Positions 25,181-63,885 are shown, numbered from the stretch's first letter. The stretch: 64,000 bases of DNA from Gammaproteobacteria bacterium (GCA_963662865.1 OY759969.1:1424565-1488564), one strand, 5' to 3'. Numbers and translations are program-made. The notes: generated by a model from the sequence alone, not told the origin.

Positions 25181-25267
25181 GCCCAGGTGGCGGAATTGGT
25201 AGACGCGCCAGCTTCAGGTGCTGGTCTACGTAAGTAGGTGGAGGTTCAAGTCCTCTCCTGGGCACCA
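25181..25267 (+). tRNA. tRNA-Leu (anticodon CAG), 87 nt including CCA
   Basis: Full cloverleaf: acceptor GCCCAGG/CCTGGGC, D-loop AATTGGTAG, anticodon stem CCAGC/GCTGG with loop TTCAGGT (CAG), long variable arm, T-arm GGAGG-TTCAAGT-CCTCC, and 3' CACCA. Confidence 0.85.
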
Positions 25268-50689: not shown

Positions 50690-51040
50690 GCTCTATCCCC
50701 TTACTTTAAATTTAATTAACGGACTCTCATTATATCAGGCTTGAACAGAAATACAAATGTTGTATGGGTCCACCACAAACTGCACTTTTTGTTGTGGTTA
50801 ATAATGTGCTGCACTGGGCCTTGTAATCCCAGCCCTTAAATATATGGACGAAGGCCGTTGCATTTGACCAGTTTTGGTTAAACAATTTCAGCTGTGAGCA
50901 GCGCGTCCCTGTGAGCGCTCGCGCACGACATTCGTTTTAAGACCCCAGGATAAGTCCACAGGCGGAATAGAAGCACGGATAGAAGCGAACAGGGCGGTCG
51001 GTACTGCCGGGGGTGATACCCCCGACGACCATGCCGAATG

Positions 51041-54000
51041 CTACCAGCGCAGCTTCCACTGTGCGCCGATGCCGTGGTTGGTTTTGCCTTCACCGTCCCG
51101 GCGGCGCAGCGCCTTGACGTCCAGCTCGGTATCCAGGTCACCCGGTGCCGACAGCAGGCGCCAGCCCAGGGTCAGGTCGTACCCGGAATCGGACGACGAC
51201 AGGCCCGCATACGGGATGCCGGTGGCGCCGTCCTTCAGGGCCAGGCCCCACTCGCCCTCCAGGCTCCAGCGACCGGAGGCCGGGCCGGGTTGCGATGAAT
51301 CCTCCTCCAGTGCGTCCGACAGCGAATCCGACAACAGCCGATCCAGGCCGCCCGAGGCCGGAGCGGTGCCGTATTCCTGACGTAGACTCAGCGACGGCCC
51401 ATGAGCGGAACCCGGCTGCCGGTCGTAGCGCAGCGAACCGGACACGCCCCATTCACGCCGCTCGTCGGCCTCATGATCCAGCAGGCGCCGGCCACGCAGG
51501 TCAATGGTCAAGCCCTTGGAGGGCAACTGCCAACTGATACCGCCGCCCAGTTCCACGCCCAGGCCGTCGCTGGTATCGCCGCCGTCATAGCGCATCCCCA
51601 ACTCCAGTTCCGGAATCAGTCGGCCACCGTCCGCCTGCGGCAACTGCCAGGACCACTCCAGACCCATTCGGAAACGCTCCGTGTCCGCCGACATACCCGA
51701 TACACCGTCGGCATCGTCCGACTCAATACGCGCCAATGCCGCATCCGAGATCAGCGTCAGCGTCAGGCCGCCCTCTTCCATCGGGCGCTCCAGCAGTATC
51801 CCGCGCACACCGGCCGAGGCCGATCTCTGCTCGATGTCATGCTCCGTACTCATCGTGGCCGAAGTCTGCTCCAGGGTCTGCTCCAGCTCGCCACGGCCAT
51901 AACTCGCCGCCGCCCACACCTGTAATCGCTGCGTTACGTTATGCCGGATATACGGCAGCAGCGAGGTCAGTGTGCTCGACAACTCGCCCTGTGCCGAAGT
52001 GCCGCTCCAATCGCCATCGCCGTCGCTGTACGACAGCGCCAGACCCAGCAGCGTGCGGCCATTGTCACGATCCACGCCCAGCATGCCGGTGGTCACATCG
52101 CCATCCACCGTGATGCCGTCCTGGCCATCCTCGTAGCGCGAGTACGACGCCTGACCCCACACCGAAACTCCGTTCTCCCCGCCGCGGTGCACAAAGCGGC
52201 TGCCGCGCAGCATATCGCGCAGCGACAGTGTCCTGGACAGATTCAATAGCCGGTCAACCGAACCGGCGCCCAGGCCATCACCGCCGCCTCCGCCCTGGCC
52301 GAAGCCGTCCGTGCCCAAACCATATCCCGTGCCGGTTGCATTACCGCCCCCATGCAGCGCTCGACCAGCGGACAGGCCGCTCACATTGCCCGACAGCCCA
52401 GGTTGATCGGCCACCGAAAAGCGGTAATCCAGGCCGCCCAGCAGATGCTCTATCGCCGTCAGGCCGAAGCGCGGCAACCAGGCTTCCTGTGCCGCCTGCA
52501 TCGCCCCCGTACCGACCGCCACGTCGTCGGTGACCGTGACTGCCACTGTGGCTATGGCCAGACCATCCGGGTAACCCGCACCGTCGCCGTCGCCGCTGTC
52601 TATACTATGGCTGATGATCGCCGTGCGGTTACCGTTACCGCCAACGTTGTCGTTGACGCCCGTCACCGTCACCGTCTGCGCCGTACTCCAGTTGCCCGCC
52701 GTGAACGTCAGGCTCAGCGGCGCCACGGTCGCCGCACTGGTCATGTTCGATTCCACCGTAATCTCCACATCGCCGGCTGGTCGTGTGTTCAGCACCAGGG
52801 TGTAGATGTCTGTACCGTCAGGCTCAGCGACCGTTACCCTGGCATCGCTGACGATCACGCCCGGGTCGTTGTCGGCGATCGTCAGTGTGTGCACACGATC
52901 GGTGCCCACCGTGTAACCCGAACCTGCGGCCAGGGTCAGTATGACCGTCTCGCTGCCCTCTTGTGTGCTGTCATCGGTGATGGCCACGGGAATATTAACG
53001 CTGGACGCGCTCGCAGACGCCACGACCGTGCCGGTCAGCTCGGTGTAGTCGGTATCGGGTGTCGCTGTGCCGGCCACGGTGTAGGTGATCGTGGTGTTCG
53101 CGGCTGGCACCGGACTTAGATTGACCACTACGTTGTACGTGCCCGAGCCTTCGTTGGTAGTAAAACCGGGCACGGCGAACGAGGCGACCGGCACGTCGTC
53201 GTCGGTGACCGTGACTGCCACCGTGTCTATGGCCAGACCATCCGGGTAACCCGCACCGTCGCCGTCGCCGCTTTCTATACTATGGCTGATGGTCGCCGTG
53301 CGGTCACCGACAACGCTGTCGTTGACGCCCGTCACCGTCACGGTTTGCGCCGTATTCCAGTTGCCCGCCGCGAACGTCAGGCTGGCTGCGCTCACGGTCG
53401 CCGCACTGGTCGTGCCGGATTCCACCGTAATCACCACGTTACCAGCCGGCTGTGTGTTCAGCACCAGGGTGTAGGTGCCCATCGCATTCTCTGCAACCGT
53501 TAAGCTGGCCTCGCTGACGGTCACGCCCGCGGAGGCGGCGACAATGTCGAAGGCATCCAGGTTATCCGTGCCGTCCGCGCCGCCGCCCAGGCCGGTGCCG
53601 GAGTCACCGTCCAGGGTGCCCAGGTCGATGTCCACTGTGCCAGCGTTGACTGCGCTCAGGGTCAGCGTGGCGGTGGTGGCCGTCATGCCCGAAGACGGGC
53701 CGGTGAAGGTCACCATGGCGCTGGCACTGTTCAGGCCGCTGTAGGCGACGCCGGTCGCCGTGGCGCCGGTCACGGTGTAATCCGTGCCCGGTGTCGCGCT
53801 ACCGCCAAAGGTCAGCGGCACCGGCAGTATCTCACCGTCTTCCAGACCGCGCCCCAGGGTCACGGTGATTGCCCTGGTGTCGCCTTCTGTGATGTCGCCT
53901 GACGCGCCCGCCAGGGTCACGGTGGTGGCGTCGTTGTCGGTGATCGTCAGTGTGTGAACATCGGGGGAACCTGACCCGTAAACGCCAGGGCGTACTCCCA

Positions 54001-57000
54001 GAGTCAGCCCGATTGTCTCGCTGGTCTCGTCTGCGCTGTCATTGGTGATGGCCACGGGGATATTGGCGCTGGTCATGTTTGCGGCCACCACGACCATGCC
54101 GGTCAGCGCGGTGTAGTCGTCGCCGGGGGTTGCCAAATTGGCGCTGCCCGTCGCCACGGTGTACATGATCGTCGTGGCCGCGGTCGGCGCCGGGCTCAGA
54201 TTGACCACCACGTTGTGTGTGCCCGAACCCTCGTTTGCCATGGACGTGCCAGCCGCGAAGCTCGCTACCGGCAAGTCATTGTCGGTAATGGTCAGTGTGT
54301 GCACACGACCGGTGCCCACCGTGTAACCCGTGCCGGTGCCCAGAATCAGTATCACCGTCTCGCTGCCCTCTTGTGTGCTGTCATCGGTGATGATCACGGG
54401 AATCTCGACGCTGGACGCACTCGCAGACGCCATGACCGTGCCGGTCAGCGCGGTGTAGTCGGTGTTCATCGACGCCGTGCTGGTGCCGGCCACCGTGTAG
54501 GTGATCGTGGTGGCCACGGCTGGCGCCGGACTCAGATCGACCACTACGTTGTAGGTACCCGATCCTTCGTTGGTGGTGAAGCTGGCCGCGGCGAACGAGG
54601 CGACCGGTTCGTCGTCGTCGGTGACCGTGACTGCCACCGTGGCTATGGCCAGACCATCCGGGTAACCCGCACCGTCGCCGTCGCCGCTTGCTATACTATG
54701 GCTGATGGTCGCCGTGCGGTTACCGCCAACGTTGTCGTTGACGCCCGTCACCGTCACGGTTTGCACCCTGTTCCAGTTGCCCGCCGCGAACGTCAGGCTG
54801 GCTGGGCTCACGGTCGCCGCACTGGTCGTGTCGGAGGCCACCGTAATCTCCACATCGCCGGCTGGTTGTGTGTTCAGCACCACGGTGTACATGTCTTCAC
54901 CGGCAGGCTCAGCGACCGTTATCCTGGCCTCGCTGACGGTGACGCCCGCCGTGTCGTTGTCGGCGATCGTCAGTGTGTGCACACGATCGGTGCCCAGCGT
55001 GTAACCCGAACCTGCGGTCAGGTTCAGTATGACCGTCTCGCTGGTCTCGGTCATGCTGTCGTCGGTGATGGCCACGGGAATATTAACGCTGGATGCGTCC
55101 ACGGACGCCACGACTGTGCCGGTCAGCGTGGTGTAGTCGGTGCCGGGTGTCGCTGTGCCGCCCACCGTGTAGGTGATCGTGGTGGCCACGGCTGGCGCCG
55201 GAGTCAGATTGACCGCTACGTTGTAGGTGCCCGAGCCTTCGCCGGTGGTGAAGCTGGTCATGGCGAACGAGGCGACCGGCAGGTCATCGTCGTCGATCGT
55301 CACTACTACTGCACCCGTTATCCCGCTATAGGCTGTTGTGCCCGAGGCCGTGTGCGTCAGCGTCACGGTGTCGTCCGCTGCGTCGGCGTCCTCAGCCGCC
55401 GACACCATCACCGTCTGTACCGTGTCCCAGTCGGTCATTGTGAACGTCAGACTGGTTGCGTCCGGCGTCAGGTCGGTGCTGGAGTGACCGGTGACTGTCA
55501 CCGTGACAGCCCCCGTCGGGGCGGTGGCCAGGGATACCGGGTAACCGACACTGTCACCTTCAGTGACCGTCAGGGTCGGCGGCAGCACGATGGCCGGTAC
55601 CTGCGGTCCCATGATTGTAAATATGTCCAGGTTGTCCGTACCACTCGCGCCGCCGCCCAGGCCGGTGCCGGAGTTGCTGTTCAGGGTGCCCAGGCTGATG
55701 TCCACTGTCTCGCCGTCGGCCGGTCTCGTCTCTGTTGTTTGTGCGCTCAGGGTCAGGGTGGCGGTAGTGGCCGTTGTACCCGAAGACGGGCCGGTGAAGG
55801 TCACCGAACCTCTGTTTCTTTGGTCCGGGCTGCTGAAGGTAACGCCGGTCGCGTCTGCGATGGACAGACTGTAGTCCACTAATAAATTATTCGATACCCC
55901 TAGCCTTGGCCTTTCGGGTCTCGCCATGCCGCCAAAGGTCAGTTGCACCGTCAGGCTCTCGCCGGCTACCAGGCCACGGCTCAGGGTGACGGTGATTTCT
56001 TTGGTGCCGCCTTCTGTGATGTCGCCTGACGCGCCCGCCAGGGTCACTGTGGTCGGCTCGTCGTCGATCACCGTCGCCGTGACGGAGTCCGGGGTGAGGC
56101 GGTTGTAGCGGGCGTCCGTGGAGGTGGCGGCGTGGGTAATGGTGACTTCCTGGTTGGCGGCGTCGGCGTTGTTATCTTCCCCGGCGACGGTGATGGTCTG
56201 GACCGTGTTCCAGTTGGCGCTGGTGAAGGTCAGGGCGGACGGGCTGACCGTGGCGGTGGCCAACGTACCCGAGGTGGGCGTGATGGTCACTGCTGCGCTG
56301 GGTTGGGTGGCCAGCACTACGGTGTACGTGCCCTCATCGCCCTCTGTAATCGTTATCGCCGTCTCGCTGATGGTGATGGCCGCTATGTCGGGGTCGGTGA
56401 TGCTGACCCTGATAACCGCCGTCAATGCGTCGTAGTTGCCGCCGGTGGCCGTGTGCATCAGCGTCACCTCATCGGTGTCGGCGTCGTCGTCTTCACCCGC
56501 CGTGACCGTGACCATTTGCGCCGTGTCCCAGTTGCTCATCGTGAATTCCAGGCTGGCGGTATCCAGCATCAGGTCGGTGCCGGAGTCTCCCGTGACCGCT
56601 ATCGTGGTACTCATCGTCGGGGCGGTTGCCAGTACCACCGAGTAGCTGGCGCTGTCACCTTCTTCGACCGTCAGGGTCGACGGCCGCAGCGCGATGGTCG
56701 GCTGCTCCATGATGGTGAAGTCCGTCAGGCTGTCTGTGCCGTCCGCGCCGCCTTCCAGGTTGGTGCCGGAGTCTGCGTCCAGGGTGCCCAGATCGATGTC
56801 GATGGTCTCGCTGGCGTCGGACGTGGTGTCGATCTGCACGGTCAGGGTCAGGGTGGCGGTGGCCGGGGCCGGGCCGGTAAATGTCACCGTGCCCATGTTG
56901 CCGGTGTCCGGGATATTGTAGGCGATATTGTTCGCCGCGGTGCCGGTCAGGGTGTAGTCCGTGCCCCGTGTCGCGGTGCCGCCCAGGGTCAGCGGTACCG

Positions 57001-60000
57001 GCAGCACCTCGCCGCTGACCAGCTCGCGGCCCAGGGTGACGGTGATGTCTGCGCTGGCGCCCTCGTTGATGTTACCCGCCGTGCCCCCCAGGGTCACGGT
57101 GGTCGGATCGTCGTCAATGACCGTAAAGATCACGGTGCTGGGATCGCCCGGGGTGACACCGGAACCGGCGTTGATGCCGGTGGTTACTGTCCGCCCCGGC
57201 GGGTCGTCCATGTTGTTTTCGTCGGGACGGTCGAAAACTACCCGAATTGTTTGCATCGGGGTTTCGCCAGTGAGAAAGGTATTAACTGTCTCGACGAACA
57301 AGTCATCAAATAGAATAGGGGACCCGTAACTCACTAAACCGTCAATGGGGATGTCGGAGGTCACGACGATGGTGCGCTGGTCGCCATTCTCGACGAGGGT
57401 CGTGTGTCCGTCCCGCACCGATACCGTCACCACCGGCACGTCGTCGTCGGTGACGGTGGCTTCCACGTCGTCGATGTCGAGGCTGGAACCGTAATCGGTG
57501 TCTGTGGACGCCGCTGCGTGGCTGATGGTCGCTATGCGTCGGTTCATGGCGTCATCCCGGTTGTTGTCGATGCCCGTCACCGTGAAGGTCTGGGCCGCAT
57601 TCCAGTTGGCCGTGGTGAAGGTCAGGGTCGTCGGGGTCACGGTGGCCGCACTTGTTGTGTTGGAGGTCGCCGTAATCGTCACGCTGCCGGTCGGCTGCGT
57701 GCTCAACCTTATGCCGTAGTTGTCCGTGCCGCCGGCTTCGGCCACTGTGGTGCCACCCTGCGTCTCGGTGACGGTGACGCCCGGGGTGACAATGTCGAAG
57801 TCCGCCAGGTTGTCCGTGCCGTCCGCGCCGCCTTCCAGGCCGGTGCCGGAGTCGGCGTCCAGGGTGCCCAGGTCGATGTCCACTGTGACGCCGGCGTTGA
57901 CTGCGCTCAGGGTCAGGGTGGCGGTGGTGGCCGTGGTGCCCGAGGCCGGGCCGGTGAAGGTCACCGTGCCGACGGCGCCGCCCAGGCCGGTGTAGGTGAT
58001 ACCGGTCGCCGCGGCGCCGGTCACGGTGTAGTCGGTGCCCGGCGTCGCGCTACCGCCAAAGGTCAGCGGCACCGGCAGTATCTCGCCGTTCACCAGACCG
58101 CGGCCCAGGGTGACCGTGATCTGCTTGTCGTCTCCTGCGAGAATATCACTCTCTGCGCCCGCCAGGGTCACGGTGGTCGGATCGTCGTCGATCACGGTCG
58201 CTGTGACGGAGGCCGGGGTGAGGTTGTAGTCGGTGTCTGTGGAGGTGGCGGCGTGGCTAATGGTGACTGCCTGATTGACGGCGTCGTCGTCGTTATCCAC
58301 TCCGGTGACGGTGATGCTCTGCGCCATGTTCCAGTTGGTGCTGGTGAATACCAGGCTGCCGGGGTTGACCGTGGCGGTGGTCGGTGTGCCTGAGGTGGCT
58401 GTGATGGTCACGTCTGCGGTCGGTTGTGTGTCCAGCGTCATGCCGTAGTTGTCCGTGGTGCCGCCTTCGATGGGCCTGGTGTTGCCGCCCGTCTGGGTGA
58501 TGGTTACGCTCGCTGGAGGAGGGTCGTTGACCCGCAGGTCGAAGCTGTTGGCGCTGCCGCTCGGGTCGGCACCGCCGCCGACATTGGTGTTCAGGGTTGA
58601 GCGGTCAAAGCCGTTGGTGGTGGCGTCGTTCGGGCCGAGGGCGATGGCGTAGGTCTCGAAACCGTCGCCCTCGGCGGTGTCGTCGTCTGCCGGTGTCAGT
58701 GCCAGGACGGCGTTCTGGGCGCCTGCACCCGAAAAGGTCACTTGCGGGGTGGGCGTGGTCGCGGCCGACAGGGTCACTCCGGTATTGAGGCCGCCAGCGG
58801 TCCCGGCTGCCAGGCCCCAGTCGGCCGGGGTCACCCCCGTACCACCGATGGACAGCGGCACGTCAATGGTTTCGCTATCAGTCAGTGGTCGAGACAGGGA
58901 GACGAGAATGGATATTTCACCGCCTTCAGTAATGGTGGTGCCACCAATACGGCCGAGGGAGACGACCGTGGGGTCGTCGTCGATCACGGTCGCTGTGACG
59001 GGGTCCGGGGTGAGGCTGTTGTAGCGGGTGTCCGTGGAGGTGGCGGCGTGGGTAATGGTGACTGCCTGGTTGGCGGCGTCGGCGTTGTTATCCACCCCGG
59101 TGACGGTGATGCTCTGGGCCATGTTCCAGTTGGCGCTGGTGAAGGTCAGGCTGCCGCTGACCGTGGCGGTGCCCGGTGTGCCTGAGGTGGCTGTGATGGT
59201 CACGTCTGCGGTGGGTTGTGTGTCCAGCGTCATGCCGTAGTTGTCCGTGGTGCCGCCTTCGATGGGCGCGGTGGTGCCGCCCGTCTGGGTGATGATTACG
59301 TCCACCGGGTCGTTGACCCGCACGTCGAGGCTGTTGGCGCTGCTGTCCGGGTCGGCACCGCCGCCGACATTGGTGTTCAGGGTTGAGCGGTCAAAGCCGT
59401 TGGCACCGCCGCCGTCCGGGCCGAGGGCGATGGTGTAGGTCTCGAAACCGTCGCCCTCGGCGGTGTCGTCTTCTGCCGATGTCAGTATCAGGATGGCGCC
59501 CTGGACGTCCAACCCCGAAAGGCTCACCTGCGGGGTGGGCGTGGTCGCGGCCGACAGGGTCACTCCAGTATTGGGGGTAACAGTCGAGAATCCCAGGCTC
59601 CAGTCGGCCGTGGTCACCCCCGTACCGCCGATGGACAGCGGCACGTCAATGGTTTCGCCAGCAGCCAGTCGTCGAGACAGGGTGACGACAATGGTTATTT
59701 CGCCGCCTTCGCTAATGGTGCTGGCGACACTAAAACGGGTGAGGGAAACGACCGTGGGGTCGTCGTCGATCACGGTCGCTGTGAAGGGGGCCGGGGTGAG
59801 GCCGTTGTAGCGGGTGTCTGAGGAGAGGGCGAGGTGGGCAATGGTGACTTCCCGGTTGGCGGCGTCGTCGTCGTTATTGACTCCGGTGACGGTGATGGTC
59901 TGCGCCATGTTCCAGTTGGTGCTGGTGAATACCAGGCTGCCGGGGTTGACCGTGGCCCCTGTGCTTGAGATGGCTGTGATGGTCACGTCTGCGGTCGGTT

Positions 60001-61029
60001 GTGTGTCCAGCGTCATGCCGTAGCTGTCCGTGGTGCCACCTTCGATGGGCGTGGTGCCGCCGTCCGTCTCGGTGATGGTTACGCCCGGTGGGGGTGGGTC
60101 GTTGACCCGCACGTCGAAGCTGTTGGTGGTGCTGCTCGGGTCGGCACCGCCGCCGACATTGGTGCCCAGGGTTGAGCGGTCAAAGCCGTTGGCACCGTCG
60201 CCGTCCGGGCCGAGGGCGATGGTGTAGGTCTCGAAACCGTCGCCCTCGGCGGTGTCGTCGTTTGCCGGGGTCAGTGTCAGGATGGCGGTCTGGGCGCCCA
60301 ACCCCGAAAAGCTCACCTGCGGGATGGCCGTGGTCTGACCCGACAGGGTCACTCCGGTATTGAGGCCGTCGCCAATCGCGGGCTCCAGGCGCCAGTCGGC
60401 CGTGGTCACCCCCGTACCGCCGACGGACAGCGGCACGTCAATGGTTTCGCTAGCAGTCAGTGGTCGAGACAGGTTGACGAGAAAGGCCACCAAGTCGCCT
60501 TCGCTAATGGCGCCGGTGCCACCAAAACGGGTGAGGGTAACGACCGTGGGCTCGTCGTCGATCACCGTCGCCGTGACGGGGGCCGGGGTGAGGTTGTAGT
60601 TGGTGTCTGAAGAGGTAGCGGCGTGGGTAATGGTGACTGCCTGGTTGGCGGCGTCGGCGGCATTATTCACCCCGGTGACGGTAATGCTCTGCGCCATGTT
60701 CCAGTTGGCGTTGGTGAATATCAGGCTGGTGGGGTTGACCGTGGCGGTGCCCGGTGTGCCTGAGGTGGCTGTGATGGTCACATCTGAGGTCGGTTGTGTG
60801 TCCAGCACCATGCCGTAGCGGTCCGTGGTACCGCCTTCGATGGGCCTGGTGTTGCCGCCCGTCTCGGTGATGGTTACGCCTGCCTGCGCGGCGGCTTCGG
60901 TTGTCAAACCCACCGACAACGGCAAACCAAGCAACACGGCAATCAGCCCGCGGGCCAGGAGGCTATTGCGGGCAGAGGTGAATCGACGGGCTGCCGAACG
61001 CCGCCCTGTATTGAGGGTGAGGCTCATCA
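51041..61029 (-). CDS. Giant autotransporter-type adhesin (~3330 aa from the MMSLTL start): signal peptide, at least four tandem ~263-aa repeat units containing Calx-beta-like domains, further Calx-beta/Ig-like repeats, C-terminal outer-membrane beta-barrel
   Basis: N-terminus MMSLTLNTGRRSAARRF...LPLSVGLTTEAAAQA is a signal peptide. Repeating blocks are ITETGGNTRPIEGGTTD.YGMTLDTQPTADVTITATSG...VTGV.N..DAANQ.VTI.HAATS.DT.YN, followed by Calx-beta-like TVV.LTR.GG...ISEG..I...V.LSR.L...E.IDVPLS.GGTGVT. The final ~700 aa are Gly/Ser-rich alternating beta-strands ending ...GAQWKLRW-stop with an aromatic terminal residue, as in autotransporter barrels. The gene is much more GC-rich than flanking DNA. 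The ORF-track start at 61180 would read through the poly-C tract (PPPPPPPPP) and is probably an artefact. Confidence 0.8.
57700..61020 (-). repeat. Four or more tandem near-identical ~790-bp coding repeat units in the 5' part of the autotransporter gene
   Basis: The ORF track shows near-identical antisense peptides recurring at 58449, 59241, 60030 and 60825 (MSVVPPSMG.V.PPVWVM.T...). A second series recurs at 57498, 59028, 59814 and 60600. The spacing is 786-795 bp. Confidence 0.75.
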
Positions 61030-61052
61030 TAAACCCCTTAATTTTGTAGAGA

Positions 61053-61080
61053 AGGGGGGGGGGGGGGGGGGGGGGGGGGG
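61053..61080. repeat. 28-nt homopolymeric G (plus) / C (coding strand) tract 23 nt upstream of the autotransporter start codon
   Basis: Direct count in the sequence: G x28 at 61053-61080. On the coding strand this is C28-TTCTCTACAAAATTAAGGGGTTT-ATGATG, with AAGGGG as the likely SD. Confidence 0.9.
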
Positions 61081-61520
61081 TATTAAATTGTGTATGTCGC
61101 CTGTAGCGCGTTTCAGGGGCATTGTGACCACGTTTATCTCCTGTGTCTTGACGGTGTGCAACCGGCCTTGTGGGCCGCATTTATTTCCAATCTGTTTCAA
61201 CTTGCTCTACTCCGGGTTCTGTATACCGATGTTGTCTCTGTTCAGGCCCGGCCTGCGGGCCGGTTCCGAATTCAGGCCCGGATTTATGCCGGCAATTTGA
61301 GCTACTTTAGACCCATTCTTGACGAATTACAACCCCTTTTTTCTGATTTGGTTGCTGACTGAGATAAAATCAGCGGTCTGCACCGCAGCGGCAAATCCGG
61401 CGACATATTAATGGGACCGGTGGAGCGAATATATCTGGCCTGACAAAATCGGCGATGCCACGAATAGTTTTTCATTGTATTAACCGTCGCTTGTCTCTGG
61501 CTGGCCGATGCCTCTTTGTT

Positions 61521-61895
61521 TCAAAAGTGCCTGCCAAGCATGGCGCCTGCCCATGCCCCGGCGACGCATAGAACGACGCTAAGCAGGATATTCAGCGCGG
61601 CTTTTGATAATTCGCCATTTTCAATCAGGTTTAGCGTTTCCACGGAAAATGTGGAGAAGGTGGTGAACGCACCGAGCAGGCCGATCAGAATGGCTGAACG
61701 CAGTTCAGGATTGATTTGTACCCGGTCCATAAACAGGACGTAGCATAACCCCATTAGCAGGCTGCCGCTGACGTTGACGATTAATGTGCCATAGGGAAAT
61801 TCTTTACCGAGTAAAGTATGGATGCCGGTCGATACATAGAAGCGCAGCAGTGTGCCAATCGCGCCACCACCCGCTATGGCCAGCGCCTGCATCAT
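61521..61895 (-). CDS. crcB: Fluoride ion channel CrcB (FluC)
   Basis: 124 aa with four TM segments. It has the CrcB signature GAFTTFSTFS and N-terminal GGAIGTLLR. Its start overlaps the rarA stop by 4 nt. Confidence 0.85.
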   Translation of the reverse strand: MMQALAIAGGGAIGTLLRFYVSTGIHTLLGKEFPYGTLIVNVSGSLLMGLCYVLFMDRVQINPELRSAILIGLLGAFTTFSTFSVETLNLIENGELSKAALNILLSVVLCVAGAWAGAMLGRHF

Positions 61896-63256
61896 GCTTT
61901 CGTCTCCTGCTTTGCCTGCTCTGCATATAGTGTGTCCAGTTCTTTCAGGCGCTGTAATTTTTCCCTGATCCTGGTCTCCAGTCCTCGATTGACCGGCTGA
62001 TAGTATTCACGTGGTGACATATCGTCAGGGAGATACTGCTCGCCTGCCGCATAGGCTTCGGGTTCATCGTGTGCGTAGCGGTAATCCCGGCCATGGCCCA
62101 GTTCTTTCATCAGTCTGGTCGGGGCATTACATAAATGAATCGGGACCGGGGCGCTGCCACCGGCCTTTACGTCCCGCATGGCGGCTTTATATGCCATATA
62201 AACGGCATTGCTCTTTGGTGCGCAGGCCATGTAGGTAACCGCCTGTGCAATCGCCAGCTCGCCTTCCGGGCTGCCGAGCCGTTCGCAGGTCTCCCAGGCG
62301 TCCAGCGCTATTCTTAGAGCCCGAGGGTCGGCATTGCCAATGTCTTCGCTTGCCATGCGTACAACGCGGCGGGCGATGTAGAACGGGTCGCATCCTCCGT
62401 CAATCATTCGGGTAAACCAGTATAGTGAGGCATCCGGGCTGGAGCCGCGCACGGATTTATGCAGGGCTGATATCTGGTCATAAAAGGCATCACCACCTTT
62501 GTCGAATCTCCGGAGGCTGTCTGATACGACATCGGTCAGAATTTCATCGGAAATAATGTATTTTTCTTCTTCATTCAAACGACAGATATCGACAGCCAGT
62601 TCCAGCAGGTTGAGTGCTCTTCTGGCGTCTCCATCGGCAAATCCGGCCAATCGCTCAATCTGTTCTTCGGTTATCTCGATATCCAGATGCTTCAGCCCTT
62701 TTTCGTCCTTGAGGGCGCGCCGTATAACGTGCGATACGGCATTGTCATCAAGCGCTTTAAGTACGTAGGTTCGTGTACGTGATAGTAAGGCGTTGTTCAA
62801 TTGAAAGGATGGGTTTTCGGTTGTCGCTCCTATAAAGTAAATCAGGCCATTTTCTACATGCGGAAGAAATGCGTCCTGTTGCGCCTTATTAAATCGGTGA
62901 ACTTCGTCAACGAAGACTACGGTGCTTTGCAGGTGCGCCAACGCTTGTTGCGCCTGTTCCACGGCACGGCGTATTTCTTTAACGCCATCAAGTACCGCAG
63001 AGATTGATAGAAACCGGGCGTCGCTGTAATTTGCTATCAGCCGTGCCAGCGTTGTCTTGCCGGTACCGGGCGGGCCCCACAGTACCATGGAATGCAGCTT
63101 TTCCTCTTCGATGGCCTGGCGAAGGGGCTTGCCTGCATTGAGTAAATGTTCCTGCCCATACACGTGTTCCAGATATTCAGGACGCAGGCGATCTGCCAGA
63201 GGCCGCATATCCAGTCCCGATTGCTGATGCAGACCCAGTTCAGGCTTGTTAATCAC
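61892..63256 (-). CDS. rarA: Replication-associated recombination protein A (RarA/MgsA), AAA+ ATPase
   Basis: Walker A GPPGTGKTTLA, Walker B VVFVDEVHRFN, and a MgsA C-terminal helical domain. Conserved lolA-rarA synteny. Confidence 0.9.
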   Translation of the reverse strand: MINKPELGLHQQSGLDMRPLADRLRPEYLEHVYGQEHLLNAGKPLRQAIEEEKLHSMVLWGPPGTGKTTLARLIANYSDARFLSISAVLDGVKEIRRAVEQAQQALAHLQSTVVFVDEVHRFNKAQQDAFLPHVENGLIYFIGATTENPSFQLNNALLSRTRTYVLKALDDNAVSHVIRRALKDEKGLKHLDIEITEEQIERLAGFADGDARRALNLLELAVDICRLNEEEKYIISDEILTDVVSDSLRRFDKGGDAFYDQISALHKSVRGSSPDASLYWFTRMIDGGCDPFYIARRVVRMASEDIGNADPRALRIALDAWETCERLGSPEGELAIAQAVTYMACAPKSNAVYMAYKAAMRDVKAGGSAPVPIHLCNAPTRLMKELGHGRDYRYAHDEPEAYAAGEQYLPDDMSPREYYQPVNRGLETRIREKLQRLKELDTLYAEQAKQETKA

Positions 63257-63885
63257 GGCTGCTCTGTTGTGTTAATCACGTCAACACCGACAGGCGGTAC
63301 AAAGTTGAATTGGGCTTCGTCGAGATTGGAGTTCATTTCGATGTTGTGGAATGACAGGCTGTTGTGTTGGTCGAAGTTGTCGTAGAACTCTATTGCGACC
63401 GGCTTTTTGCCGGAAAAGGTCAATACCGTATATTTGAAACCGGCATTGTTGTCCTTCGGTATCAGCTTGATTTTCTGCTCTCCCGTTGCGCCGGGAAGCA
63501 GTTCGACTGCATAGAGTTCCAGGATTGAATCGGGATTATCGAGGATGGTCAGCGGGGAACGGGCCAGCCTGTCATCGGCAGGGCGTATGGTGACCTGCTC
63601 CAGATCTCTGTCAAAGACCCACAGGGTTCTTCCGTCTGAAACGATTTCCTGTTCATATGGTGTTTCATAAATCCAGCGAAACTTTCCGGGGCGCTTAAAA
63701 GCCATGTGCCCCAGTGACGGCTCCGCGGCGGCGGGTTCAGCGCTAATCAGGTGTTGCCTGAAGTCCGCTGAAAAAGAGTTCAGGCTGTCCAGATTCGTCA
63801 TTAATTCATCGATATCAGCAGAGGCATGGCTGCCGGACACAAGCAGCAAGGACACCAGCGTAAACAGATATTTATATCCGGACAT
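63253..63885 (-). CDS. lolA: Outer-membrane lipoprotein carrier protein LolA
   Basis: Signal peptide plus the LolA unclosed beta-barrel signature (FSADFRQ...[25 protein letters not shown]). It is downstream of ftsK, as in E. coli. Confidence 0.85.

Follow-up and report, generated by a model that had tools for sequence, protein, structure and literature searches.

A giant gene for a putative type-V-like adhesin behind a long poly-C tract, and its recombining paralogues in a related gammaproteobacterial genome

Homopolymeric runs control surface genes at the Neisseria opc and porA and the Bordetella fim promoters, and the tracts of proven promoter switches are 7–16 nt long. At the tpr genes of Treponema pallidum, a poly-G ends 4 nt before the transcription start and its length governs transcription (PMC7864442). 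Among secreted surface proteins, the classical autotransporter barrel comprises 12 strands and ∼250–280 aa (PMC9289746), and tandem rods of immunoglobulin (Ig)-like, Calx-beta, and cadherin-like, Ca2+-associated domains serve adhesion in type Ve proteins and in adhesins of type I secretion systems (T1SS) (PMC12153261). Here we describe a giant gene on the minus strand of a 64,000-nt stretch of DNA from a Gammaproteobacteria bacterium (GCA_963662865.1 OY759969.1:1424565-1488564; hereafter the window, with positions counted from its first nucleotide), which is preceded by a run of 27 cytosines (C27). On balance, we think it likely that the gene encodes a giant, type-V-like adhesin from a contingency gene family, in which poly-C switching and cassette exchange would vary the cell surface. 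The C27 tract was absent from an earlier, model-generated account of this DNA (the sequence-only reading), yet together with its recombining family it is the most interesting element of the locus.

No homopolymer other than C27 reaches 8 bases in the 64 kb, and this tract lies where a simple-sequence-repeat contingency element is expected, in the promoter/leader region of a surface-protein gene. The giant gene is spanned by a single long minus-strand open reading frame (ORF; 51041..61180), within which the ATG at 61030 is the likely start codon, because AAGGGG and this ATG follow the C-run directly and a typical signal peptide comes next. The resulting gene (51041-61030) encodes 3329 aa; the sequence-only reading had estimated its size well (∼3300 aa), whereas the 5′ end that it gave, 61029, was one base off. 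We regard C27 as a candidate slipped-strand contingency element and recombination junction. An assembly artefact was considered as the origin of the tract and rejected. With a length that is a multiple of three, the tract also places the gene in the same frame as an ATG further upstream, at 61180 (window 61031-61180, minus strand), and gene callers will probably report a spurious N-terminal extension here, giving a protein of 3379 aa that includes a poly-proline stretch.

A search of species-representative genomes returned 36 loci of this family, 28 of which are on one 2.51-Mb chromosome, OZ243932.1, from a related, uncultured gammaproteobacterium. The continuous reading frames of these 28 paralogues sum to at least 198 kb, or ∼8% of OZ243932.1 (a lower bound). 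In 14 loci the fetched DNA reaches the 5′ end of the continuous frame, and 13 of them (all but L024, which has none) have a tract of C14–C29 immediately upstream of the start; in two further copies, whose frames are interrupted, the corresponding position is taken by C30 and C35. The distance from tract to ATG is 15–25 nt, and the tracts are followed by a G-rich Shine–Dalgarno (SD) sequence, GGGAGGG or GGTGGGG, 8–9 nt from the ATG, with L021 and L012_19242 (which heads a 29-codon frame only) as exceptions. In the oriented loci, which span 600 kb, we counted 18 runs of C ≥ 12 and not one of G ≥ 12. Variation in tract length, from C14 to C35, was seen between paralogues only. When the 490-nt region upstream of the window gene was compared with the paralogue loci, the tract alone was conserved; it has therefore been retained while its surroundings diverged. 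Close relatives also exist: proteins at 85–95% identity are encoded on a 2.57-Mb contig.

The tract is also the point at which the paralogues are mosaic. Clustering of the 150 nt on either side of each tract showed that upstream and downstream classes reassort. By pairwise BLAST, L020 and L035 match at 98% identity over 466 nt, up to a point inside the tract, with no relation downstream; L035 and L030 share 97.5% identity over at least 1336 nt beginning at the tract, with no relation upstream; L020 and L015 are 95.7% identical over 233 nt from the tract. Because the classes reassort exactly at the tract, recombination has repeatedly joined different 5′ contexts and coding cassettes there.

Some paralogues in OZ243932.1 are arranged head to tail (L016 and L033, at about 200-2260; L006 and L008, at 11.4-13.6 kb), and the spacer of ∼1.25 kb between the end of one C-terminal beta-domain and the next poly-C is nearly identical over at least 260 nt in seven copies. 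Only 412–659 open codons precede the beta-domain in eight of the 28 paralogues (L027, L029-L032, and L034-L036); in L030 and L035, the poly-C is still present ∼7.3 kb upstream of it. These short-frame paralogues may be frameshifted pseudogenes or the product of homopolymer or long-read errors. Among distant family members, L040 has no poly-C, and L041 and L042 are flanked or truncated by transposases of the IS21/IS1595 type, integrases, and TrwC conjugation genes; the family is thus housed in mobile DNA in other lineages. The closest relatives are metagenome-assembled genomes (MAGs), one of which, JAJDYQ01, lends its name to a GTDB order-level clade of uncultured bacteria; the clade also includes a MAG from a deep-sea massive sulfide deposit (PMC11427306).

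The protein begins with a Sec-type signal peptide, composed of an Arg-rich n-region, the h-region LLARGLIAVLLGLPLSVGL, and AQA followed by G; inspection and hydropathy place its hydrophobic core at aa 23–43. At the other end is a non-repeat module of 492 aa, consisting of a helix, a Gly-rich linker, and a ∼385-aa barrel, well short of the ∼700-aa C-terminal barrel envisaged by the sequence-only reading. That account was right about the terminal Trp: the protein closes with a beta-signal of alternating hydrophobic residues (...AQWKLRW). The AlphaFold2 (AF2) model from which helix and barrel were predicted (m5ef423c9c8b5; predicted local distance difference test score (pLDDT) 83, predicted template modelling score (pTM) 0.80) runs from the helix through a disordered Gly-rich stretch into ∼18 strands. 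Its best structural matches are autotransporters, and in the structural alignments classical autotransporter barrels cover 217–224 residues and the 22-stranded FhuA 366.

Homologues of the C-terminal module number 83 in a collection of 5.8 billion proteins. The gathering score of the autotransporter beta-domain family PF03797 is passed by 15 of 50 aligned homologues (35–58 bits; cutoff 26), and it is through these matches that the barrel family is tied to PF03797. They always start at profile position 1 and extend to ∼207 of 255, leaving ∼170 residues beyond; TIGR01414 gave weak matches in three relatives. A profile search for the module in a library of 1.84 billion cluster representatives retrieved 12,301 members at E ≤ 1e-3 and 6,888 at E ≤ 1e-30, always with the module C-terminal, in proteins of 700–5300 aa. 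A Calx-beta domain precedes it in all eight of the top representatives scanned, one of which reaches PF03797. Judging from these searches, the module is widespread and poorly covered by current family models, and the predicted structure suggests that it is probably a divergent, enlarged relative of the autotransporter beta-domain.

Between signal peptide and module lies a passenger of 11 type A domains (∼107 aa), seven type B or B′ domains (∼140–157 aa), four type C domains, and one divergent domain, X. Type C is the canonical Calx-beta domain (∼113 aa) and alone accounts for the PF03160 match, which exceeds the gathering score (112 bits, in four stretches) and is the sole Pfam family in the whole protein. 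An AF2 model of one A+B unit (pLDDT 86.8), built from an alignment of the internal repeats and database homologues, shows two beta-sandwiches, for which Foldseek ranks NCX1 and CALX CBD12 as the best matches, followed by integrin leg domains and Gram-positive MSCRAMM adhesins. The description of the repeats as Calx-beta-like thus holds at the level of fold, whereas at the sequence level it applies to four of the ∼23 domains.

The ∼790-bp units of the sequence-only reading correspond to A+B domain pairs. Their periodicity is real, but the claim of at least four near-identical copies was too strong: three full units (U1–U3) share 85–86% pairwise DNA identity, and a fourth, partial one is 87–90% identical to them over its first ∼324 nt (type A) and ∼69% over its whole length. 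The longest exact repeat anywhere in the gene is 61 nt; repeats with a period of 789 nt are invisible to Tandem Repeats Finder (TRF), whose period limit was 500 nt. Since the units are not near-identical, the assembly collapse that had been feared is not a serious risk, and with units only ∼85% identical the proposal of repeat-driven length variation is likewise weakly grounded. The 2787 residues of the passenger include no Cys, two Lys, and 326 Asp+Glu against 58 Lys+Arg, an acidic composition that would fit a Ca2+-associated extracellular rod. Lysine avoidance is extreme, and GC content alone does not explain it, because Arg is also scarce.

Table 1. Mapped features of the giant gene and its 5′ flank, in window coordinates
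Feature	Position	Strand	Basis or detail
Homopolymeric C27 (G27 on the plus strand), 23 nt upstream of the ATG	61054..61080	-	TRF and direct reading
Shine–Dalgarno-like AAGGGG, G-rich	61034..61039	-	3 nt before the first ATG, 6 nt before the second
Start codon and signal peptide (aa 1-50)	60881..61030	-	Translation, hydropathy; paralogues have comparable long signal peptides
Passenger (aa 51-2835), ∼23 tandem beta-sandwich domains	52526..60880	-	Windowed self-comparison, iterated hidden Markov models (HMMs), alignments
Three full tandem A+B units	58511..60880	-	U1 60086-60880 (795 nt), U2 59303-60085 (783 nt), U3 58511-59302 (792 nt)
Fourth, partial unit	57782..58510	-	Type A domain and B′ variant
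Region with four canonical Calx-beta domains	52862..55288	-	Pfam PF03160; interleaved with A and B′ domains
Individual Calx-beta domains	54947-55288, 54281-54616, 53936-54280, 52862-53200	-	Pfam and alignment
Predicted long alpha-helix, module residues 2-35 (34 residues)	52415..52516	-	AF2, pLDDT 86-95; candidate linker/plug helix
Gly-rich linker, module residues 49-97	52229..52375	-	AF2, pLDDT <50
Predicted outer-membrane beta-barrel, ∼385 aa, ∼18 predicted strands	51044..52198	-	Ends in beta-signal I-G-A-Q-W-K-L-R-W
Stop codon	51041..51043	-	ORF and translation

In outline, this architecture resembles that of type Va autotransporters such as AIDA-I, Ag43, NalP, and EstA: signal peptide, passenger, helical linker, C-terminal barrel, and terminal aromatic residue, encoded by one gene with no partner transporter, and with homologues, though not the protein itself, matching PF03797. 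Unlike type Va proteins, it has a Gly-rich, disordered segment of ∼50 aa between helix and barrel. Long Ig-like/Calx-beta rods are shared with type Ve proteins (intimin and invasin) and with LapA, SiiE, and BapP; in type Ve the barrel is N-terminal, whereas here it is C-terminal, and our protein is set apart from the T1SS-exported Bap/RTX (repeats-in-toxin) adhesins by its Sec signal and by the lack of both RTX repeats and T1SS genes. No TpsB, POTRA/ShlB-type, or T1SS genes were found anywhere in the 64-kb window, in agreement with the earlier remark that none lie nearby; the only membrane fusion protein (MFP) in the window pairs with an AcrB-type resistance–nodulation–division (RND) pump at 5–9 kb, 45 kb away. 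The protein contains no RTX array, only one chance nonapeptide match in the Gly-rich linker, and no HemolysinCabind match. The combination of a Sec signal, no RTX repeats, and no partner genes therefore supports self-contained, type-V-like display. Two-partner secretion (type Vb) and type Vd, which are marked by a separate TpsB or by POTRA ahead of an Omp85-type barrel of 16 strands, were considered and rejected: protein and window lack POTRA, and a helix and disordered linker precede the barrel. Of the self-exporting autotransporter first proposed, the outline thus stands (Sec signal, barrel with beta-signal, no partner genes), although the protein departs from a canonical type Va one.

If the gene is a type-V-like adhesin from a contingency family, the Sec signal peptide would carry the protein to the periplasm, and the barrel would insert into the outer membrane assisted by the machinery for beta-barrel assembly (BAM), displaying or anchoring the passenger. 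The passenger would be a very acidic, adhesive rod of ∼23 Ig-like/Calx-beta-type domains, probably binding Ca2+, with an estimated length of ∼80–100 nm. Transcription may start a few nt past the tract, producing a 15–20-nt leader with the SD, and slipped-strand changes in tract length would then affect how the promoter or leader works and thereby switch or grade the expression of each copy. The tract would in addition provide a shared patch of homology for the exchange of 5′ flanks and coding cassettes between copies. We infer that tract length changes within populations and controls expression. The closest parallel is tpr, where a paralogous surface or outer-membrane gene likewise sits behind a G/C homopolymer near the transcription start, with length varying between copies, and the 4-nt spacing seen there would fit the distance between tract and ATG found here. 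Different from tpr, opc, porA, and fim are the organism, an uncultured, marine-type gammaproteobacterium and no known pathogen, the size of the genes (∼9–11 kb), and the coincidence of the tract with a mosaic breakpoint.

Several observations weigh against this interpretation. The tracts are 14–35 nt long against 7–16 nt in proven promoter switches, so that the mechanism may differ, and all multi-copy and breakpoint evidence comes from OZ243932.1, not from the window's own genome. A simple scan of the coding strand upstream of the gene gave no sigma-70 consensus promoter, two metagenome scans for the gene's 5′ region returned 0 hits, and in RNA folding the hairpin between the last C's of the tract and AAGGGG was no better than in shuffled sequences (z-score −0.15). 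As to the protein, it departs, on the model, from type Va in two features that define the class, namely a 12-strand barrel and a passenger that forms a beta-helix: the barrel is predicted at ∼385 aa and ∼18 strands rather than ∼250–280 aa and 12, with both strand number and barrel closure being predictions only, and an array of Ig-like domains takes the place of the beta-helix. Foldseek TM-scores of the module to all barrels are low (0.25–0.43). The sequence-only reading had named an autotransporter beta-domain match as a check on its proposal, and this came out negative for the window protein, 15 of the 50 homologues notwithstanding: neither the whole protein nor its C-terminal 492 aa matches PF03797 or the TIGR01414/NCBIfam autotransporter models, even at E=10. 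Searches of PDB sequences with the module (phmmer) and with the family profile yielded nothing meaningful, and hhalign produced no alignment between the family profile and the beta-domain of Escherichia coli Ag43 (probability 0.5%). Within the passenger, hhalign relates types A and B only faintly to the canonical type C (E=0.016, probability 3%, and E=5e-4, probability 31%, respectively).

The GC content of the gene at third codon positions (GC3) is 0.80, compared with 0.45–0.61 in the housekeeping genes on its flanks (lolA, rarA, crcB, the ABC importer genes, the DAO oxidoreductase gene, and the genes for AcrB, RapA, and purF) and 0.68–0.74 in the restriction–modification (R-M) and defence genes hsdR, hsdM, and GmrSD. 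At second positions (GC2) it reaches 0.555 against ∼0.39 in neighbours, reflecting the abundance of Thr, Gly, Ala, and Asp in the protein. The GC-rich segment extends from about the start codon to ∼140 nt beyond the stop, and GC drops at ∼50.9 kb, just beyond a 3′ hairpin. This GC-rich hairpin (CGGGGGTATCACCCCCG; window 51008-51024, minus strand) lies 16 nt past the stop codon and has no T-run; a terminator is one possible role, and marking the 3′ edge of the GC-rich cassette another. The sequence-only reading correctly noted an open antisense strand, and antisense ORFs of 168–555 aa were found inside the gene.

The data at the tract can also be read in other ways. The tract could act mainly as an initiator of recombination, through a G-quadruplex (G4) formed by the G27 strand or an i-motif formed by the C strand, and not as an expression switch. 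Paralogue similarity that starts and stops exactly at the tract fits this idea, and the GC3 of 0.80, in a family that evidently recombines, would fit GC-biased gene conversion. All tracts but one are ≥ 15 nt, the length that an intramolecular three-tetrad G4 requires. G4 precedents are described at pilE and vls (PMC3547852, PMC3585125), and pilE of Neisseria gonorrhoeae resembles the present loci in having a G-rich, structure-prone element upstream of a variable surface gene of a recombining family. At odds with pilE, every copy here is complete, with its own tract, start, SD, and signal peptide, so that there is no layout of one expression site plus silent cassettes, and the element consists of a single base throughout; the same breakpoints could also result from ordinary recombination, homologous or illegitimate, at a shared homopolymer of 20–30 nt. 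We consider it unlikely that the tract serves mainly in this way, while a G4/i-motif role in recombination, by analogy with pilE, would be a live alternative or addition to switching. Alternatively, the tract could be part of the coding sequence, with translation starting at ATG 61180 and reading through a poly-proline stretch, and with frameshifts turning the protein on and off as in Neisseria NalP and MspA. C27 does keep this ATG in frame with the main ORF (3379 aa), some ATG likewise lies upstream in frame at 10 of the 17 paralogous tracts found ahead of a long ORF, and coding-region homopolymers are a known switch in autotransporter genes (PMC3723659). The copies themselves speak against it: the same upstream sequence is joined in different frames (MKSGQKW... 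versus MPCDRQAS...) with no upstream peptide conserved, in those whose 5′ end is readable, a properly spaced G-rich SD and an ATG come just after the tract, with the signal peptide next, and an extra ∼50 residues with nine prolines ahead of an already long n-region would be implausible. Because different frames are joined and tract lengths show no mod-3 preference, the tract is non-coding; translation through it was rejected, and we rate a coding tract as very unlikely.

The secretion route and the origin of the gene allow rival accounts as well. Export by a T1SS as an RTX/Bap-like adhesin, or by some other transporter, with the C-terminal module a mere anchor or unrelated to secretion, could be argued from the tandem Calx-beta/cadherin-like Ig arrays, which are typical of LapA, SiiE, and BapP (PMC12153261), and from the failure of the window protein itself to match PF03797. 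Against this stand the clear N-terminal Sec-type signal peptide, the missing RTX nonapeptide array and HemolysinCabind match, the lack of ABC, MFP, or TolC secretion genes near the gene, and a C-terminal beta-barrel with an outer-membrane-protein beta-signal whose best structural matches are autotransporters. The sequence-only reading had itself named a T1SS RTX-like substrate as the alternative to be excluded, and on this evidence it was ruled out, making any such route highly improbable. The same reading took the gene for compositionally foreign, and in composition it is: GC is 64.9% (0.649) compared with 48.6% (0.486) in the rest of the window. A recent horizontal acquisition of a single foreign gene from a high-GC donor would explain this difference of 16 points and its confinement to ∼50.9–61.0 kb; distant family members do occur in genomes of 63–67% GC, where the family genes have 66–72%, and no positional orthologue beside lolA-rarA-crcB was present in the fetched loci of OZ243932.1. 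Yet most of the 28 paralogues in that sister genome are richer in GC than their loci (0.55–0.63 versus 0.50–0.60 in the remaining fetched DNA of each locus, where neighbouring paralogues are sometimes included), pointing to an old, family-wide trait; the relatives with 85–95% protein identity sit on a 2.57-Mb contig; and the excess is partly driven by amino-acid content, as GC2 shows. We find a recent single-gene transfer distinctly unlikely. Sequence comparison across the family suggests that high GC is a long-standing family trait and not evidence of such a transfer; high-GC ancestry, amino-acid bias, and GC-biased gene conversion are possible causes. The insertion site, for its part, appears lineage-specific.

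The gene lies downstream of lolA, rarA, and crcB and is followed by genes for an NMT1-type ABC importer, a SnoaL-like protein, a DAO oxidoreductase, GmrSD, and a type I R-M system. The start of crcB overlaps the end of rarA (window 61521-63885, minus strand); the lolA-rarA-crcB block is common in gammaproteobacteria and here leads into the giant gene. No fluoride riboswitch or other Rfam family was found at crcB, and the only Rfam match over the window is a tRNA-Leu. This tRNA-Leu(CAG) (25181-25267, plus strand) is followed by a low-GC stretch (41–45%) with defence-type genes at 25.7–45.9 kb, including a DEAD/ResIII helicase, a T5orf172/MUG113 protein, and an MmeI-family enzyme, then type I R-M hsdRSM at 37.3–44.0 kb and GmrSD at 44.0–45.9 kb. 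The region has the look of a defence island inserted at this tRNA.

If the barrel prediction is true, the 6,888 representatives found at E ≤ 1e-30 amount to thousands of clusters with an unannotated autotransporter-like translocator. PF03797 and TIGR01414 miss much of the family, and annotation would read only “Calx-beta domain protein”. The predicted translocator is half again the size of the canonical 12-strand barrel, and every member checked has an Ig-like/Calx-beta passenger and no beta-helix, which, if true, bears on how arrays of folded domains cross the outer membrane. Long-read homopolymer errors fall on the very element of interest, the poly-C.

In its fullest form, the interpretation would be that of a surface-variation system, programmed and so far undescribed, in a gammaproteobacterial lineage that is uncultured and probably chemolithoautotrophic, with dozens of 9–11-kb adhesin genes filling ∼8–10% of a 2.5-Mb genome, each 14–35-nt poly-C toggling expression and doubling as a dedicated cassette-swap junction, and the ∼18-strand barrel representing a new type V subclass specialized for Ig-like passengers. 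Taken jointly, these elements make up a tentative proposal that we would put forward as doubtful rather than probable. What is known of contingency loci and of large families of variable surface proteins comes mainly from pathogens restricted to a host. Here, 28 gene copies headed by long homopolymers occur in a small genome from an environmental or uncultured lineage, which suggests similar bet-hedging there, with phages, grazers, and changing attachment substrates as possible selective pressures.

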